This document shows, in pieces, positions 1 through 14,819 of a stretch of DNA of 15,331 nucleotides. Made by a program: the position numbers and the translations under genes. This DNA comes from a virus (taxonomy: Duplodnaviria > Heunggongvirae > Uroviricota > Caudoviricetes), in IMG/VR virus record IMGVR_UViG_2706794665_000015. One strand, written 5' to 3'. The notes beneath the pieces were generated by a model, which did not search any database, was not told the origin of the DNA, and was given only the letters and a program-made list of their open reading frames with translations. The first letter of the stretch is position 1; each line of letters starts with the position of its first letter.

Positions 1-1131
1 TCAAATGACCAGTTTTTTCCACTCCTTACCGCGTACATCGTTGTAAATATCGGTCATTTTTTGATTCGAATGGCCTAGCAAAATTTTGGTATCAACCCCC
101 TGCTCTCTGAACAATCGCTCTGATAAAGATCTCTGCTCATGGAAAGAGGGTGGGGTGCCATTAGCACGCCAGTTGTAATCCACAGAATCCCGGGCTTTTT
201 TAAATGCAACGGTTAATGTTGCTGGCTTAACCATCCCGCCGCGCTTAGCTGTCCCTTTCGCGTGATGGTGGTGCAATAGCCACGGACTAAGAACGCAATC
301 GCGGCAGGATGACACTACATCATCCAGGGTGAGATTTAATTTATCGCAACGCAGAGCCAGAGGGATGGCAATCCGGGTTCCTGTTTTTTGCTGTTCGACA
401 TGAAGATAACCATCCCGGATATCCGAAAATTGCATTTTGCAAATATCTGAAAGGCGCTGGCCTGTCATCAGTGCCAGCAGCATACCGCGCTGTAAAAAGT
501 AACCATTCTTTTCCGCTGCGTTATAAATCATCATCCACTCATCAAAAGTCAGTCGCTGTCTTGATATCCGCACCTGCGGTTTTTTTGCCGATTCTGCAGG
601 GTTAAAGCCTGGCGGGACATCGCCCGTTTGCTGAGCTTCCCGGAAAACATCGATCAGTACTTTCCTGAAAATTTGTCCCATTCTGTTATGTCCTCTGGCC
701 TTGTACTCTTCCAGTACTGATACCACATCTTTTACGGTTATGGCATCTAACGGTCTGGTGCCAAAACGTTCATCAAATACCCTGAGAGGGGCCGCTTTCT
801 GTTTCAGCGTGTTGAGTTTGATCTCGCCGTTTTCATATCTTTCCTGTTGAATTTTTCTGTAATTATTCAGAAAAATGGTAACGGTTGATGAACCGCCGGT
901 ATCACTAATAATTTTCTCCTGCAGACTGAGCATTTGTTCCATTTGCTGCCGGGCAAGACGGCTGTTCGCTTCTGCTGCAATAGTTTCTGCCAGTTTCTGG
1001 TCAATACTGCCGAGACCGTGATTTTTGCCTGTTATGGGATGCCTGTAACGCCAGTAAACTTTGTTATTTCTTTTGTCAAAATACGGAGATAATCCCGGAA
1101 CATCGGTTTTATATTTTCGCGGGCGCGCCAT
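1..1131 (-). CDS. int: Phage tyrosine integrase (site-specific recombinase), complete; stop codon is the first three bases of the window
   Basis: 376-aa ORF; C-terminal region has the tyrosine-recombinase pattern (LGHSNQKMTDIYNDV with the catalytic Tyr context, upstream HHH...R cluster); sits at the prophage end next to an excisionase-like gene as in lambdoid int-xis modules. Confidence 0.9.
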   Translation of the reverse strand: MARPRKYKTDVPGLSPYFDKRNNKVYWRYRHPITGKNHGLGSIDQKLAETIAAEANSRLARQQMEQMLSLQEKIISDTGGSSTVTIFLNNYRKIQQERYENGEIKLNTLKQKAAPLRVFDERFGTRPLDAITVKDVVSVLEEYKARGHNRMGQIFRKVLIDVFREAQQTGDVPPGFNPAESAKKPQVRISRQRLTFDEWMMIYNAAEKNGYFLQRGMLLALMTGQRLSDICKMQFSDIRDGYLHVEQQKTGTRIAIPLALRCDKLNLTLDDVVSSCRDCVLSPWLLHHHHAKGTAKRGGMVKPATLTVAFKKARDSVDYNWRANGTPPSFHEQRSLSERLFREQGVDTKILLGHSNQKMTDIYNDVRGKEWKKLVI

Positions 1132-1357
1132 CTTCCAGTATCCTCTTCAAAGCAGGGTGATCTGTGGCGATCACCTCCGGCTTGTTTACCATTCCGACAA
1201 AGCGAGCTTGCGGATCCACTCGCCAGCGTCTTCCAACTTTTTTGGGGAGAGGAAATATCATTCCGGCTTTAGCGTATTTACTTAACGTACTCGGAGTAGG
1301 GACCGGTTCACTGAATTCCTCTTTTGCCCACTCAGTGAGCAGAATAAGTCTTGCCAT
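1109..1357 (-). CDS. xis: Excisionase (lambda Xis-like DNA-binding protein)
   Basis: 82-aa ORF immediately upstream of int, overlapping its start by 23 nt; the stretch LTEWAKEE...GMIFPLPKKVGRRWRV resembles the lambda Xis winged-helix region (LQEWNARQ...RIFPPPVKDGREY). Recalled similarity, not searched. Confidence 0.75.
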   Translation of the reverse strand: MARLILLTEWAKEEFSEPVPTPSTLSKYAKAGMIFPLPKKVGRRWRVDPQARFVGMVNKPEVIATDHPALKRILEDGAPAKI

Positions 1358-1421: not shown

Positions 1422-3893
1422 TTAAAAATCAGCCTGATTTGGGATCAGTTTTTGCCAGATAGCTGAAACGTATTTTGCCTGGTAACGGGCGTCATCAAGT
1501 GCATTATGGCGCTCACCTTCGAATGGAATAGCCGTTCTGGCATCGAAGTCTATGGCTTTCCCCAGCTCAACGATTGTGCGTACATCGCGATCGTTGTAGT
1601 AACGCCACGGGCAGGGGATCCCCTGCCGTTCGTATGAACGGCGCAAAATCGTGTTGTCGAAGTTGGCTCCATTTCCCCAAACCTGAACAAAAAATTCACC
1701 GGAGTTTTCGTCGATAAATTCCCGCAATTGTAACAGTGCATCATCTAACGGGATTTCATCGGTCATAATGGCAGATTGCGCTTCGCGTGATTGCTTAAGC
1801 CACCATTTAATGGTGTCCCGATCAATGACTCCGCCAGCAGTTTCCAGATCGATAGTCTTACTAAATTCCGGTCCCATATCTCCGGTTTGCGGATCGAAAA
1901 ATATTGCACCTATTGAGATGATCGGGGCATCAGGATTTTTTCCCATGGTTTCAAGGTCGATCATTAGATGGTCACACGTCCTGCTGGTGGATGTGATTTC
2001 TTGATGACCGTTCACCTTAATTGAGTGATCTGCCGTCTCGCCAGTTTCATTATCGCTATCGTGATGCTGATTGCCGCCAGTGTTCTCCTTGTGTGGATGT
2101 TCAGCGCCTTCCATTTCCTCCGGATCATCTTCCTGAACTTCAGGCTGATACTCTTCATCGAATGTTTCCTGGTATGTTGCGTCGCCCATTACCGCGCCAC
2201 AATCAGGGCAGTTGCCGCCGCCGGTCTGACCGCAGGCGGTGCAGACTTTTTCCACTTCCTGTTGCGCCACTGATTCAGGCTGTTTCGTTTCTGGCTCGTT
2301 TTGTAACGCATTTGGGCTGTTTTGTTCCGCTTTCTGGTCGTTCTGTTCCGTTTCTTGCTGGTTCTGGTTCACAGAATCGCGGGTCTGGTTCCCCTTAACC
2401 CATTTCGGATCATTCGGGTCGCTAATCCCTTCAACAAATTCACCACGTGATACTGCAAGCAGTTCATCGGCGTCAGGCTGGCTGATATTGGCTGCCTGCA
2501 TAATTTTGTTTACTTCGTCAGCGGTAACTTTTACTGACCCTGGTTGTGCGGTCGTGTCAGATGCACCAGTATTTTGTTGTGAACCTGAGTATGTACCGTT
2601 TTTGCGGGCGAAATATTCTTCTTTCGTGATTTCAGTAGCCCCGGCAGACAGCGCCTTATCCAGACCAGAAAGTTTGTTTGCGCGACCGTATTTTTCGCCA
2701 TCCTTGTCGGTGAAGAGGAAGTAGAACGGCCCCTCACGTTCTACAGATGGTTCGACTTCCACTTTGCATTCGGTTTTTTCGTTGTCCGGAATTGCCGTTT
2801 CCACTGCATCAGTTTCTGGTACTGGCGACGAGAGAGTATCAGTTGCGCTCTGATTTGTTCCTTCATCTTCAAACACGCCCTTTGTAGTCAGGTATTCAGT
2901 AATGTATTTGTTCAGTGCCACAGGGTCTTTGTGAATGTCGATCGGACGTTCACGGACAAGGCCAAAAATAGTCTGGCGGTCGTAGCGAAGGGCATCAGGC
3001 TGTTTGCGCATTGATGCCGAGATACGCTTCCAGTCTTCGCGGTCGTTGTCGATAACTTCATTTTTTGCCCAGCGATGGATGCTGCCGTCAATGTTTCCGG
3101 CATCCACATCACCAGGCCAGAGAGCGTAGGCCAGTTCGTCATCCAGTGTTTTCCATGTCTGCTTGTATTCGCGATGAATGGCAGCAATGACCGGGTTGAT
3201 TTTTCCTGTTGAATTTTCAGTGTGCTGTTGATTGGCTCTGGCGCGGGCGAGATCAACAACAGACGTGTATTTTCCGGCTTCCTTGCGTTCACCTTCGCGA
3301 CGTTTTTTCCAGATGCGCATCTCTGCCTGAATTTCGGGCCATTTGGCACCAGGCTTACATTTATGCTTAACCCACCCGATGGCATGCAGCTTAAGCTCCG
3401 GATACATGGCGTTAACTTCTGGCATTTTCATCAACGCTTCAACGATATGTCCGTCGAATGTTGCCATGTCTTCCTGCAACAGTTCCTGCGCGCTAATCAC
3501 CATATCAACGGTGATGTTTTCACATGTGTCGAACTTAACCATGACAGCGTTCTGTACTTCAGGGGCCAGCTTGTCAAAAGTGACGTTCATCGGATCTGAT
3601 TCAGTCTCAACCGGGACAAAGGAAGCAGACGCCTCATCCCAGCGGTTTTCCTGCATATATTCAGCATCCCAGGAATCTAGGGCAGGGCGGGGTATACCGG
3701 GTTTATCCTCGCAGACAAGAAATTTATAAGCGCAGTCCTGAGCAGCCGGATAATGTTCCAGGAATTGCCAGTGAAATTTTGCGCGGGCGCGACGTTCATC
3801 ACCGGCTTCAATGGCAGTGGCTACAGCGACTGCACCTTCTTCCTTTATTGCCTGTTCGTCCGGAATGGCGGCGCAAATAAAGACTTTACTCAT
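1422..3893 (-). CDS. Prophage exonuclease, 823 aa: N-terminal domain of unknown function, acidic low-complexity linker with a Cys4 ribbon, C-terminal DEDDh (DnaQ-like) 3'-5' exonuclease domain
   Basis: Long ORF with GAGGT about 8 nt upstream of the ATG at 3893. C-terminal residues show Exo I (MIDLETMG) and Exo III (HNALDDARY) motifs of DEDDh exonucleases. Cys4 motif CTACGQTGGGNCPDCG is encoded near 2181-2250. Position between xis and dicB/ydfD matches the exonuclease slot of Qin-like prophages. Confidence 0.85.
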   Translation of the reverse strand: MSKVFICAAIPDEQAIKEEGAVAVATAIEAGDERRARAKFHWQFLEHYPAAQDCAYKFLVCEDKPGIPRPALDSWDAEYMQENRWDEASASFVPVETESDPMNVTFDKLAPEVQNAVMVKFDTCENITVDMVISAQELLQEDMATFDGHIVEALMKMPEVNAMYPELKLHAIGWVKHKCKPGAKWPEIQAEMRIWKKRREGERKEAGKYTSVVDLARARANQQHTENSTGKINPVIAAIHREYKQTWKTLDDELAYALWPGDVDAGNIDGSIHRWAKNEVIDNDREDWKRISASMRKQPDALRYDRQTIFGLVRERPIDIHKDPVALNKYITEYLTTKGVFEDEGTNQSATDTLSSPVPETDAVETAIPDNEKTECKVEVEPSVEREGPFYFLFTDKDGEKYGRANKLSGLDKALSAGATEITKEEYFARKNGTYSGSQQNTGASDTTAQPGSVKVTADEVNKIMQAANISQPDADELLAVSRGEFVEGISDPNDPKWVKGNQTRDSVNQNQQETEQNDQKAEQNSPNALQNEPETKQPESVAQQEVEKVCTACGQTGGGNCPDCGAVMGDATYQETFDEEYQPEVQEDDPEEMEGAEHPHKENTGGNQHHDSDNETGETADHSIKVNGHQEITSTSRTCDHLMIDLETMGKNPDAPIISIGAIFFDPQTGDMGPEFSKTIDLETAGGVIDRDTIKWWLKQSREAQSAIMTDEIPLDDALLQLREFIDENSGEFFVQVWGNGANFDNTILRRSYERQGIPCPWRYYNDRDVRTIVELGKAIDFDARTAIPFEGERHNALDDARYQAKYVSAIWQKLIPNQADF

Positions 3894-3985: not shown

Positions 3986-4177
3986 TTAAAGACCTGCCGG
4001 GATTTCGTTATTATCCTGGTGAATAACTTTATCGACCGGGTAACAGTTACCGGGAATTTTCTGTTCGGTTGCTGCAGTCACACACTCCTGCATTGTCCTG
4101 TGAACACTGACTGCAATATCAACTGGCTCTCCGGAAACAAGAAAAACTGTCAGAACAAGTGCAAATGCTGTATTCAT
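3986..4177 (-). CDS. ydfD: YdfD-like small lysis protein (63 aa, N-terminal signal/TM segment)
   Basis: Start chosen at the internal Met (MNTAFALVLTVFLVSG...) because AAGGA lies 8 nt upstream on the minus strand and its ATG overlaps the dicB stop (ATGA). Hydrophobic N-terminus; length and position downstream of dicB match my recollection of Qin YdfD. The ORF track's longer 81-aa version has no RBS. Confidence 0.65.
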   Translation of the reverse strand: MNTAFALVLTVFLVSGEPVDIAVSVHRTMQECVTAATEQKIPGNCYPVDKVIHQDNNEIPAGL

Positions 4178-4362
4178 TGTGCACATCCTTTTTGTATCGG
4201 ACGTAAACGGGCCAGCATTGAAAGAATGCATATTTTATTTAATAACTCCCGTTCGTGTTTTCTCTTGTTAATGGCATCTTCAGTAAATACAGGGTTACTG
4301 ATAGTGACACCAATTTCAAAACAACCTTCAGACGTATTAACGTTTGGTAATAACGTTTCCAT
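4174..4362 (-). CDS. dicB: DicB cell-division inhibitor (62 aa)
   Basis: Start at the internal Met of the 97-aa track ORF, preceded by GAGGA with a 7-nt spacer. The product METLLPNVNTSEGCFEIGVTISNPVFTEDAINKRKHERELLNKICILSMLARLRPIQKGCAQ closely matches my recollection of E. coli DicB and lies about 175 nt downstream of DicF, as in Qin. Confidence 0.75.
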   Translation of the reverse strand: METLLPNVNTSEGCFEIGVTISNPVFTEDAINKRKHERELLNKICILSMLARLRPIQKGCAQ

Positions 4363-4536: not shown

Positions 4537-4589
4537 GGGCGGCAGAGCAGTCACGGAGTAAAACTGATACCGCCAAACGTCACCAGAAA
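4537..4589 (-). ncRNA. dicF: DicF small regulatory RNA (53 nt; known to repress ftsZ and other mRNAs)
   Basis: Reverse complement of 4537-4589 is TTTCTGGTGACGTTTGGCGGTATCAGTTTTACTCCGTGACTGCTCTGCCGCCC, identical to the DicF sequence as I recall it, followed on the minus strand by TTTTT (plus 4532-4536). Confidence 0.85.
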
Positions 4590-8627: not shown

Positions 8628-8660
8628 ATCTGAGAAACGATTTTGTCGGAGGAAATTTTA

Positions 8661-8878
8661 ATGGAAACCGTATTTGACGCACTGAAAGCAATGGGAAAAG
8701 CCACATCGGTAGAACTGGCCGCGCGACTTGATATCAGTCGTGAAGAGGTTCTCAACGAGCTGTGGGAACTCAAAAGAAATGACGTCGTTGATAAAACTGG
8801 TCACACCTGGTTTCTGGCTGGCGAAGGTGAATCCCGGGTAACCGAAGAGCGGCCAGTAAAATCTGAAGCACAGGATAT
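8661..8878 (+). CDS. Hypothetical winged-helix-like protein, 3' end lost in the N run
   Basis: ATG at 8661 preceded by GGAGG (8649-8653); reading frame runs into the gap at 8879. Confidence 0.5.
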
Positions 8879-9153
8879 NNNNNNNNNNNNNNNNNNNNNN
8901 NNNNNNNNNNNNNNNNNNNNNNNNNNNNNNNNNNNNNNNNNNNNNNNNNNNNNNNNNNNNNNNNNNNNNNNNNNNNNNNNNNNNNNNNNNNNNNNNNNNN
9001 NNNNNNNNNNNNNNNNNNNNNNNNNNNNNNNNNNNNNNNNNNNNNNNNNNNNNNNNNNNNNNNNNNNNNNNNNNNNNNNNNNNNNNNNNNNNNNNNNNNN
9101 NNNNNNNNNNNNNNNNNNNNNNNNNNNNNNNNNNNNNNNNNNNNNNNNNNNNN
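8879..9153. other. Run of 275 N (assembly gap or masked sequence)
   Basis: Uninterrupted N characters; true length and content unknown. Confidence 1.
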
Positions 9154-9411
9154 CGGGAAGCCGCAACACAGGAAGAAATTAAAACAGAAACTGTGGCGGA
9201 CATTGTGCAGCCGTTGCCATCGTTTACCGAAACGCAAGCAGATGAGCTGATTTTTCCGTCCCTTCGCAGGGCAAACCTGGCGCTGCGCAGGGCGAAAAGT
9301 GATGTTCAGAAGTGGGAGCGAGTCTGCGCCGCGCTGCGGGAGCTGAACAAGCACCGGGATATTGTTCGACAGATTACTGATTCTTCCCGCCGTGTTGTAT
9401 CGGAAAAGTGA
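9154..9411 (+). CDS. 3' portion of a CDS whose start lies in or before the N run
   Basis: The frame is open from the first base after the gap to TGA at 9409-9411; the track's GTG start at 9193 is probably internal. Could be the C-terminus of the 8661 gene if the gap is short. Confidence 0.4.
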   Translation, partial: REAATQEEIKTETVADIVQPLPSFTETQADELIFPSLRRANLALRRAKSDVQKWERVCAALRELNKHRDIVRQITDSSRRVVSEK

Positions 9412-9426: not shown

Positions 9427-9819
9427 ATGGCAAAAGTATTTACACCAGAAGAGCGGGAAGAAGTGAAGGCGCGCATTGTGGAATTCGTGCGCCTGAGCGG
9501 ACGAGAAACTTTTCGACAACTGGCAGATAAAACGGGTGTCAGTAAGACCGCTATTCGTCGTTTATCTGGTGCGCTTGCGGCCAGTGGTGATGTCTGGCTC
9601 TCTGGTTGCGGGGTATTTCCATCAGAGCAGGCGTATCGCGTATGGCGTAAGACACCGGAGAAGGCTGCTGACCCGACACTGATTCGAAAGTTACCTGACG
9701 GAGAAATACGTCGTTACAACAGACGGCAGAACATAATTTGTCGTGAGTGCCGCCAGAGCGAAGTTATGCAGCGTGTGCTGGCGTTCTATCGGGGAAACTT
9801 TCAGGAGGTGATGGAGTGA
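9427..9819 (+). CDS. Hypothetical protein with a predicted helix-turn-helix segment (130 aa)
   Basis: ATG at 9427 preceded by GGAGG (9416-9420); HTH-like stretch FRQLADKTGVSKTAIRRL; C-terminal CxxC (CRECRQ). Confidence 0.55.
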   Translation: MAKVFTPEEREEVKARIVEFVRLSGRETFRQLADKTGVSKTAIRRLSGALAASGDVWLSGCGVFPSEQAYRVWRKTPEKAADPTLIRKLPDGEIRRYNRRQNIICRECRQSEVMQRVLAFYRGNFQEVME

Positions 9820-10112
9820 GGGTCAGAGTTTATATTGCCGGTCCAATGACGGGATATGAAAATTTCAACCGTGAGGCGTTTCACAAGGCGGAAGAGGAAC
9901 TGAAACGGGAAGGGCATACCGTCTTAAACCCGGCAGTACTTCCGGACGGGCTGACACAGCCGCACTACATGGATATTTGCATGGCAATGATTCGTTGTGT
10001 GGATGCGATTTACATGCTGAATGGCTGGCAGCGGTCAGCGGGCGCTAAGGCAGAGCTGGCACTGGCGGAGAAACTGGGGCATGCAGTGATTTATCAGGAG
10101 GTGGCTCAATGA
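9816..10112 (+). CDS. DUF4406-like protein (nucleoside 2-deoxyribosyltransferase-like fold), 98 aa
   Basis: GTG start at 9816 with GGAGG upstream, needed to include the conserved VYIAGPMTG glycine-rich loop; start overlaps the upstream stop. Family call is from recalled motif. Confidence 0.55.
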   Translation: MRVRVYIAGPMTGYENFNREAFHKAEEELKREGHTVLNPAVLPDGLTQPHYMDICMAMIRCVDAIYMLNGWQRSAGAKAELALAEKLGHAVIYQEVAQ

Positions 10113-12240: not shown

Positions 12241-12359
12241 AACTGCGGGTGCTTGAGGCTATCTGTCTCAGGCATGAACACCAAAAGGCAGATAGAGAAA
12301 AGCCCCAGTTAACATTACGCGTCCTGCAAGACGCTTAACATTAATCTGAGGCCATATCT

Positions 12360-12419
12360 ATGCGACACATAGAGATTAGCCTCTTACGGACCGAAAGGTC
12401 AAGGAGAAGCAGGCTATGA
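12360..12419 (+). CDS. Short upstream ORF (19 codons) ending in ATGA overlap with hok; mok-like coupling element
   Basis: ATG at 12360 with GAGG upstream; its TGA (12417-12419) overlaps the hok ATG (12416-12418). Confidence 0.3.
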   Translation: MRHIEISLLRTERSRRSRL

Positions 12420-12571
12420 AGCAGCAAAAGGCGATGTTAATCGCCCTGATCGTCATCTGTTTAACCGTCATAGTGACGGCACTGGTAACGAGGAAAGACC
12501 TCTGCGAGGTACGAATCCGAACCGGCCAGACGGAGGTCGCTGTCTTCACAGCTTACGAACCTGAGGAGTAA
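12416..12571 (+). CDS. hokD: Hok-family type I toxin (HokD/RelF-like), 51 aa
   Basis: Product MKQQKAMLIALIVICLTVIVTALVTRKDLCEVRIRTGQTEVAVFTAYEPEE has the Hok signature (single TM helix then RKDLCE…); GGAG 7 nt upstream. Coordinates may be off by 1 (hand-indexed). Confidence 0.85.
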   Translation: MKQQKAMLIALIVICLTVIVTALVTRKDLCEVRIRTGQTEVAVFTAYEPEE

Positions 12572-13385: not shown

Positions 13386-14432
13386 GTGCGGGTATTACTT
13401 CGACCTGTTCTGGTACCGGAACTCGGGCTGGTGATCGTTAAGCCGGGCCGTGAATCCATGCCGGTATTCCACAATACCCGGGTACTGGTGGAGCCGGAAC
13501 CGAAAAGCATGCGTAATCTGCCGTCCGGGGTCGTTCCTGCCGTTCGCCAGCCGCTGGCGGAGGATAAATCATTACTGCCATTTTTCAGCGACGAACGAGT
13601 GATTCGTGCTGCTGGTGGCGCTGGCGCATTGTCTGACTGGTTACTGCGCCATGTTAAATCCTGCCAGTGGCCACACGGCGATTATCACCACAGTGAAACC
13701 GTCATTCACCGTTATGGTACCGGCGCAATGGTGTTGTGCTGGCACTGCGACAACCAGCTGCGCGACCAGACCTCCGAATCACTCGGGCAACTTGCTCACC
13801 AAAACCTGTCTGCATGGATGATTGACGTCATACGCCATGCAATGAATGGCTCGCAGGAACGGGAATTATCGCTGGCTGAATTATCCTGGTGGGCGGTCCG
13901 CAATCAGGTGGCGGACGCGCTACCGGAAGCGGTATTATGTCGTTCGCTGGGGTTGCGTGCGGAAAAAATCCGCTCAATGTACCGTGAAAGCGACATCGTA
14001 CCGGGAGAGCAGACCGCCACCAGCATACTGAAGCAGCGCACAAAAAATCTTGCGCCGCTGCCTCACGCCCACCAGCAAAACCCGCCACAGGAAGAGACGG
14101 TGGTCAGCATTGCCGTTGATCCTGAGTCTCCGGAATCTTTCATGAAACGACCTAAACGTCGCCGCTGGGTTAACGAGAAATACACACGCTGGGTGAAGAC
14201 ACAGCCGTGTGCGTGTTGTGGTAAGCCAGCCGACGATCCCCATCACCTGATTGGTCATGGTCAGGGCGGAATGGGGACAAAATCTCACGATATTTTCACG
14301 CTACCGCTGTGTCGGGAGCATCACAACGAGCTTCATGCGGATCCTCTGGCGTTCGAAGAAAAGCATGGTTCTCAGGTTGATTTAATTTTTCGTTTTCTTG
14401 ATCACGCCTTTGCAACTGGCGTGCTTGGGTAA
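13386..14432 (+). CDS. ydfU: DUF968 / YdfU-like protein (348 aa) with a C-terminal Cys/His (HNH-like) motif
   Basis: GTG start with GGAGG 4 nt upstream; C-terminal CACCGKPADDPHHLIGHGQGG…CREHHNELH; position upstream of rusA/Q. Confidence 0.7.
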   Translation: MRVLLRPVLVPELGLVIVKPGRESMPVFHNTRVLVEPEPKSMRNLPSGVVPAVRQPLAEDKSLLPFFSDERVIRAAGGAGALSDWLLRHVKSCQWPHGDYHHSETVIHRYGTGAMVLCWHCDNQLRDQTSESLGQLAHQNLSAWMIDVIRHAMNGSQERELSLAELSWWAVRNQVADALPEAVLCRSLGLRAEKIRSMYRESDIVPGEQTATSILKQRTKNLAPLPHAHQQNPPQEETVVSIAVDPESPESFMKRPKRRRWVNEKYTRWVKTQPCACCGKPADDPHHLIGHGQGGMGTKSHDIFTLPLCREHHNELHADPLAFEEKHGSQVDLIFRFLDHAFATGVLG

Positions 14433-14444
14433 AAGAGGTGACTG

Positions 14445-14819
14445 ATGCTCATAGATTTGGTTTTACCTTACCCGCCGACGGTGAACACTTACTGGCGACG
14501 CCGTGGCAGCACATATTTTATCTCGGAGGAGGGAAAGCGTTATCGCCGGGCTGTGGCGCTTATTGTTCGCCAGCAGCGGCTGAAATTAAGCCTGTCCGGA
14601 AGGCTGGCGATAAAGGTGATTGCAGAGCCACCGGATAAGCGTCGTCGCGACCTGGACAATATCCTGAAAGCACCGCTGGATGCGCTGACGCATGCGGGAG
14701 TGTTAATGGACGATGAGCAGTTTGATGAAATCAATATCGTTCGTGGTCAGCCAGTATCTGGTGGACGTATGGGGGTGAAGATTTACCCCATAATGCATGA
14801 AGAGCAGGTCAAAAAATGA
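14445..14819 (+). CDS. rusA: RusA Holliday-junction resolvase
   Basis: 124-aa product with the RusA pattern (…PDKRRRDLDNILKAPLDALTHAGVLMDDEQ…), similar to the DLP12 RusA as recalled; GAGGTG upstream. Confidence 0.9.
   Translation: MLIDLVLPYPPTVNTYWRRRGSTYFISEEGKRYRRAVALIVRQQRLKLSLSGRLAIKVIAEPPDKRRRDLDNILKAPLDALTHAGVLMDDEQFDEINIVRGQPVSGGRMGVKIYPIMHEEQVKK

Follow-up and report, generated by a model that had tools for sequence, protein, structure and literature searches.

The closest described relatives of the gene considered here are exonucleases of phages, prophages and E. coli. RecE (exonuclease VIII) of the Rac prophage of Escherichia coli K-12 carries a 5'-3' exonuclease head of the PD-(D/E)XK type, and its gene is followed by recT. 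According to PMC11611040, its non-catalytic region is dispensable for basic RecET recombination, stimulates linear-linear recombination and is called function-unknown in the literature; citing Fu et al. 2012, they also state that full-length RecE, including the region shared with the protein described below, raises linear-linear recombination. T4 DexA is a stand-alone DEDDh exonuclease of 227 amino acids (aa) with extra loops, and plasmid-borne EcD ('HREX'), a DexA homologue encoded in E. coli, is reported to cleave T4 DNA and to protect against T4 (PMC12153337). Here we describe a gene from a 15,331-nucleotide (nt) stretch of DNA of a tailed phage (Caudoviricetes; IMG/VR record IMGVR_UViG_2706794665_000015), hereafter the window, which gene annotation and PHROG scans identify as the integrase-proximal half of a lambdoid prophage. 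The gene at positions 1422-3893, in a lambdoid prophage of the Qin/DicB type integrated next to ompW, is intact and encodes a mosaic of three parts: a YdfE_N/YdfE_C module, a RecE-homologous middle and a DEDDh exonuclease (Table 1). The most fitting description of the gene is an uncharacterised RecE-type variant that keeps the scaffold, has exchanged the head for one of opposite polarity and lacks an annealase.

The C-terminal head is matched over aa 642-813 by Pfam family PF16473 (Rv2179c-like 3'-5' exoribonuclease domain), covering positions 2-177 of the 177 in the profile (E = 1.4e-67) and scoring 227 bits against a curated cutoff of 27. Its only solved relative detected by sequence is T4 DexA (PDB 8KEL/8KEN; E = 1.5e-6), with which it has the fold family and the catalytic residues in common: D646/E648, D746 and H796/D801 align with D7/E9, D119 and H186/D191 of DexA. 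All five are invariant or nearly so in an alignment of 10 sequences that includes DexA, one stand-alone coliphage homologue and seven distant fused homologues. No PD-(D/E)XK domain was detected in the 823-aa protein by domain mapping or by six-frame searches, in which RecE residues 591-866 gave no hit. As a domain description it is near-certain that the head holds an intact DEDDh active site, predicted to act as a metal-dependent 3'-5' exonuclease. This agrees with the initial annotation, which had read the protein as a multidomain exonuclease with a DEDDh rather than a PD-(D/E)XK C-terminus; its catalytic motifs prove conserved, and the protein falls into no well-characterised family whose partner is present elsewhere. 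In contrast to the stand-alone DexA, the head forms the C-terminus of an 823-aa scaffold protein. The same difference separates it from the stand-alone DEDDh exonucleases of temperate coliphages, such as that of PhiR55_1 (190 aa, named 'exodeoxyribonuclease VIII'), which are about 60% identical to the head and likewise lie at the end of the early-left operon, but are without the entire 640-aa scaffold. In one distant homologue with a RecE-type N-terminus and a DEDDh head (P0233, 752 aa), a lysine stands at the Exo I glutamate and an alanine at the Exo II aspartate, and because of these replacements that head may be catalytically dead.

Ahead of the head, the middle of the protein resembles RecE. 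In a BLASTP comparison with K-12 RecE, aa 262-625 correspond to RecE 278-591 (E = 9e-61); identity is about 85% over aa 477-625, which span the PKWVKG motif, a Cys4 ribbon and an acidic linker up to the head junction, and at the DNA level it is 77% to recE over nt 1425-1867 of the gene. Because of the homology between aa 262-625 and RecE 278-591, the protein is, on sequence comparison, a chimera on the RecE scaffold in which the nuclease head has been exchanged. Since the identity over aa 477-625 reaches the head junction, the ribbon and the linker are features of the non-catalytic region of RecE. The initial annotation had set the C-terminus apart from the RecE nuclease fold, which holds, but it missed the homologous aa 262-625. 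The two proteins also have a similar length and the early-left slot of lambdoid prophages in common, and the homologous part takes in a helical domain of the YdfE_C type. They differ in the first 260 aa, which are unrelated (YdfE_N in the window protein, Exonuc_VIII in RecE), in the nuclease fold and its polarity, and in recT, which follows the RecE gene but not the window gene. The NCBIfam RecE model (NF007259) matches aa 246-625 at model positions 271-602 with 273.7 bits, against an equivalog cutoff of 1269. Many records file such proteins under RecE/exonuclease VIII; this assignment was rejected, because it fails on the nuclease domain, on the equivalog score and on the RecT partner.

The same middle region contains the ribbon and the repeats that had been noticed earlier. 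The ribbon (C551-C565) is a predicted zinc ribbon, judged by its two CxxC pairs, the short spacer and its conservation among homologues: it occurs in RecE and in 63 of 67 distinct full-length E. coli-type homologues and is absent from distant family members. As the initial annotation had stated, it is embedded in an acidic, Q/E/N-rich stretch; aa 506-640 comprise 23% D+E, 4% K+R and 20% Q+N, with a net charge of -25. The short DNA repeats proposed for this stretch exist as a 21-nt array that is real but weak and length-polymorphic, with a copy number that differs among homologues, whereas the 11-mer quoted as their unit is not the unit and occurs there only two to three times. The segment from PKWVKG to the first CxxC measures 35 aa in RecE and 42, 49 (the commonest length) or 56 aa in homologues, varying in 7-aa steps, and a duplicated 7-aa unit is visible in the 56-aa variants.

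The N-terminal part is covered by two Pfam families, YdfE_N (PF27430) and YdfE_C (PF27432), according to precomputed hits on the identical protein; both are recent families that carry no function. The region had been described as unassigned, which is correct as to function and known fold, but it was already delimited by these two families. The AlphaFold2 model of aa 1-205 is of high confidence, and the helical YdfE_C domain that follows is the most widely shared piece of the family. In K-12, ydfE of the Qin prophage is a pseudogene that is 96% identical over aa 1-256 and then runs into the insertion sequence IS2E at codon 256. It is the same gene cut by IS2E, and the window copy is intact, just as the initial annotation had suggested.

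The gene fills the slot between xis and dicB/ydfD, which is also the slot of exo-bet-gam in lambda and of recET in Rac, and xis and int come directly after it in the window and in annotated relatives. No annealase, Gam or second exonuclease was found in PHROG scans of the 20 largest other open reading frames (ORFs) of the window, which yielded repressors, replication proteins, a Ren-like protein, an HNH/DUF968 protein and RusA. Six-frame phmmer and hmmsearch runs over the window with K-12 RecT, lambda Bet, Gam and Exo, the RecE nuclease and a Rad52-like profile returned a single noise match, to Gam in an antisense ORF (E = 0.002, 11.8 bits). Annotated near-identical prophages contain no annealase or Gam from int to the head or tail genes, and no annealase is found within the flanks of 80 viral contigs with a 98-100% identical head. 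Three more distant DEDDh-headed homologues from other assemblies, again with xis and int directly after the gene, lack an annealase as well. DEDDh heads without an annealase are thus seen in four E. coli contexts, the 80 viral contigs and three proteins of other assemblies, and the earlier remark that no bet/recT-like annealase or gam-like gene lies nearby is borne out. The gene shares its genomic neighbourhood and presumed time of expression with the 'SynExo' systems lambda Red and RecET, and its scaffold with RecE; unlike them, it has neither an annealase partner nor Gam, and the exonuclease polarity is opposite. Membership in the two-component 'SynExo' group was considered and rejected, as no RecT/Redbeta, Erf, Sak, Sak4, Gp2.5 or Rad52-like annealase was found in the same module.

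A search with aa 1-345 among 1.8 billion cluster representatives returned 175 matches, and the domains of the long matches and of the ORFs of fetched loci were mapped with phmmer. Two alternative N-termini emerge, one of the YdfE_N type and one of the RecE/Exonuc_VIII type, both usually followed by the YdfE_C helical domain. Each of them joins three heads: the RecE-type PD-(D/E)XK nuclease, the DEDDh exonuclease and a third module of about 280 aa. A RecT gene lies immediately downstream of the PD-(D/E)XK heads in all three cases examined, namely K-12, P0222 and P0128 (RecT E = 2e-36). Among the 80 E. coli-type DEDDh proteins of the viral contigs, about 22 have the RecE/Exonuc_VIII-type N-terminus in place of YdfE_N, and many of their records read 'exodeoxyribonuclease VIII'; E. 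coli prophages thus contain the same head on either scaffold. The third module carries a conserved KKSLTDAxKKALSxLGFSADVxLGLYD motif. It has no significant match in Pfam, and sequence and profile searches against PDB sequences found nothing, but weak Rad52_Rad22 matches fall on the motif in 10 of 17 members. Its AlphaFold2 model (predicted local distance difference test score, pLDDT, 84) shows the long beta-hairpins and helix of the Rad52 fold, and fold comparison matches it to Rad52 and Mgm101. The third head is predicted to be a Rad52-like annealase, and the PHROG label 'exonuclease' that it bears (phrog_2489, phrog_7838) was probably carried over from the scaffold. The module is encoded in at least 564 viral contigs. 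Among the best 80 of these loci, 78 ORFs fuse it to a YdfE- or RecE-type N-terminus, the exceptions being one that begins 44 nt from the contig end (L030) and one that is split into two ORFs (L068); no separate exonuclease or annealase was detected near these 80, and in some loci a gam homologue lies directly upstream. Of what the analysis yielded beyond the gene itself, the combination of two N-termini with three heads, one of them a predicted Rad52-like annealase in fused form, is of the greatest interest, and it makes the question of the RecE N-terminus experimentally approachable.

The results obtained directly are the domain composition, the conservation of the catalytic residues, the homology of the middle to RecE, the absence of an annealase and the modular family. 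We propose that the protein trims 3' ends of DNA in phage recombination or replication after induction. The gene would be transcribed with the early-left operon once the prophage is induced, and the scaffold would bring the flexibly tethered head to DNA ends or to recombination and replication intermediates. There the head would use two-metal DEDDh catalysis to take nucleotides off 3' ends and shorten 3' tails or flaps, while pairing and resolution would fall to host RecA/RecFOR, to annealases of co-resident prophages and to the RusA of the phage itself. The account draws on the DEDDh active site on its long acidic tether, the scaffold in common with recombination proteins, the early-left operon slot, RusA in the right arm and, as weak evidence, the lack of a detectable promoter of its own. 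We lean slightly towards it as a whole package; within it, the domain description is near-certain and the biological role much less so.

Several points weigh against the proposed role. A 3'-5' polarity leaves 5' tails, so that a recombination-promoting function is not obvious; such tails are not a substrate for RecA loading or for the known phage annealases. The Pfam family of the head is named for an exoribonuclease, and RNA could therefore be the substrate. The absence of an annealase was judged from PHROGs, Pfam annotations and a few reference proteins, which makes an unrecognised annealase family possible, and the 80 viral contigs (loci L091-L170), with their 98-100% identical heads, are not independent samples. 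Fold comparison of aa 1-205 gave no match to known folds; as the N-terminal module is without a recognisable fold, the idea of a targeting scaffold draws on its combinatorial distribution alone. A literature search found no paper that characterises a ydfE-type protein and no experiment on the window protein.

We also consider, as a tentative and rather doubtful extension, that the YdfE/RecE N-terminal region may be an autonomous, swappable 'recombination adaptor' that delivers the three heads to the same cellular target. The DEDDh-headed form would then be a solo end-processing enzyme, working with recombination proteins of the host or of co-resident prophages or as a substitute for Gam, and not a degenerate RecE. 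If true, this would explain what the 600 N-terminal residues of RecE, long a puzzle, are for. Recombineering relies heavily on RecET, and the same scaffold on three natural heads offers a handle for domain-swap and interaction experiments. There is, in addition, an annotation problem: the name 'exodeoxyribonuclease VIII' is attached to proteins that have neither the RecE nuclease nor its polarity.

Other functions of the head were weighed against 3'-end trimming of phage DNA. Superinfection exclusion, in which the head would degrade 5-hydroxymethylcytosine (5hmC)-modified T-even DNA as EcD does and so protect the lysogen, is unlikely. The window head does belong to the same DexA family as EcD, and most E. 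coli genomes have kept the gene, frequently within cryptic prophages. EcD is nevertheless a different, short protein, which according to its cloning primers starts with MIDTET and ends with TIPETY; in viral contigs, the 20-mer of its reverse primer had one chance match without a corresponding ORF. Its signature residues differ from those of the window head: EcD has A78 at the position of DexA D90, whereas the window head retains an aspartate there (D718) and thus has no 'dimer-only' substitution. The residues proposed for tetramerisation (S87) and 5hmC recognition (W152, D169) in DexA are not conserved either, the latter two being replaced by Y766 and A780. A PADLOC search returned no match. 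The scaffold, moreover, is common to RecE and to a predicted annealase. No sigma-70-like promoter was found directly upstream on the strand of the gene, although promoter and terminator scans around it were at or below chance and constitute weak evidence; because of its early-left operon position without a detectable promoter of its own, the gene is expected to be repressed in lysogens. The reported defence role of EcD cannot be transferred to the window protein.

Somewhat less probable still is an exoribonuclease, with the head degrading 3' ends of RNA (transcripts, small RNAs, R-loops or primers) during phage development in the manner of Mycobacterium tuberculosis Rv2179c. The best Pfam match is to a '3'-5' exoribonuclease Rv2179c-like domain', and some database copies are named 3'-5' exoribonuclease; yet the only solved relative detected by sequence, DexA, is a DNA exonuclease, the scaffold is common to the DNA recombination proteins RecE and the predicted Rad52-like annealase head, and the gene occupies a slot for recombination genes. 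We regard it as very unlikely that the protein replaces Gam by keeping RecBCD off linear phage DNA, through long 5' tails or through DNA mimicry by the acidic linker. The extreme acidity of the linker (net charge -25) and the distribution of gam homologues, which are absent from the window and related DEDDh-type loci and present upstream of some annealase-headed relatives, would fit such a role, but it is purely speculative, and RecE, which shares this acidic linker, is not known to inhibit RecBCD.

The gene is widespread. It matches 4803 of 5426 complete E. coli genomes (about 88%), and 3533 of them (about 65%) have a place with at least 80% coverage of the gene, at a median of two places per genome; a DEDDh-headed form without an annealase is present in about 65-88% of complete E. 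coli genomes. At least 99% identity to the gene is found in 41 records, and 694 blocks of a public assembly collection contain the 823-aa protein in exactly this form. Because it is common, present in databases and covered by curated families, the gene is a database-known prophage gene and not a new object. That it is merely what is left of a recombination module, decaying without function in defective prophages, is highly improbable. Cryptic prophages do hold many of the copies, IS2 has destroyed the one in K-12, frameshifts occur in a few homologues, and two catalytic residues are gone from a distant one; against this, numerous genomes have the ORF in intact, identical form, and the catalytic residues and predicted zinc ribbon are conserved.

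Table 1. Coordinates of the gene at 1422-3893, its domains and other genes of the window
Feature	Position in window	Strand	Remarks
int	1-1131	-	window gene
xis	1109-1357	-	window gene
Complete coding sequence	1422..3893	-	2472 nt; 823 aa + stop, ATG start; many E. coli chromosomes carry identical copies under the names 'exonuclease' or '3'-5' exonuclease'
YdfE_N region, aa 1-205	3279..3893	-	alpha/beta subdomain aa 1-100, helical subdomain aa 105-205
Basic low-confidence linker, aa 206-245	3159..3278	-	pLDDT <50 at aa 224-241; the IS2E cut of K-12 ydfE (aa 256) falls shortly past it
Helical YdfE_C domain (labelled MID1 here), aa 246-345	2859..3158	-	homologous to RecE residues ~278-360
RecE-like central region, aa 346-505	2379..2858	-	short conserved motifs GPFYF...GRANK... 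and SRGEFVEGISDPNDPKWVKG
Degenerate 21-nt tandem repeat	2280..2366	-	4.1 copies, 70% matches, score 63 (Tandem Repeats Finder); 7-aa Q/N/E-rich units
Cys4 ribbon CTAC-x7-CPDC, aa 551-566	2196..2243	-	C551-x2-C554-x7-C562-x2-C565; common to K-12 RecE
Strongly acidic linker, aa 567-640	1974..2195	-	D+E 27%, net charge -17; ~85% identical to RecE up to head junction
DEDDh 3'-5' exonuclease head (predicted), aa 641-823	1425..1973	-	Rv2179c-like/T4 DexA family
Catalytic codons	D646 1956-1958; E648 1950-1952; D746 1656-1658; H796 1506-1508; D801 1491-1493	-	from alignment
dicB	4174-4362	-	window gene
DUF968/HNH-endonuclease-like gene	13386-14432	+	PHROG scan
RusA Holliday-junction resolvase	14445-14819	+	PHROG scan

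Near-identical prophages adjoin ompW in many E. coli chromosomes. Past the exonuclease gene, the window continues with a DUF1482/ydfD homologue, dicB, the DicF RNA, small ydf genes and a cI-like repressor. The DicF small RNA (4537-4588, minus strand; Rfam RF00039, 76.7 bits) lies upstream of dicB as in K-12 Qin. To the right of the repressor follow cro, YdaT, an O/DnaT-like gene, P, accessory genes, hok/sok, rem, the DUF968/HNH gene, RusA and the start of Q. The DUF968/HNH and RusA genes are paired before Q and are, besides the exonuclease, the sole recombination-related genes of the window. The right arm also carries a type I toxin-antitoxin pair, consisting of a sok antitoxin RNA (Rfam RF01794, 106.7 bits) and an adjoining hokD-type toxin ORF (12247-12418 and 12416-12571, both plus strand). 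In the ORF at 8643-9182 (plus strand), the match to a DUF1627-type protein (phrog_630, 253 aa) is limited to the first 74 residues, whereas close relatives are intact at 256 aa; the window copy has probably undergone a frameshift or rearrangement. Among the accessory genes of the right arm, the ORF at 9747-10112 (plus strand) is a nucleoside 2-deoxyribosyltransferase-like/DUF4406 relative (phrog_355).

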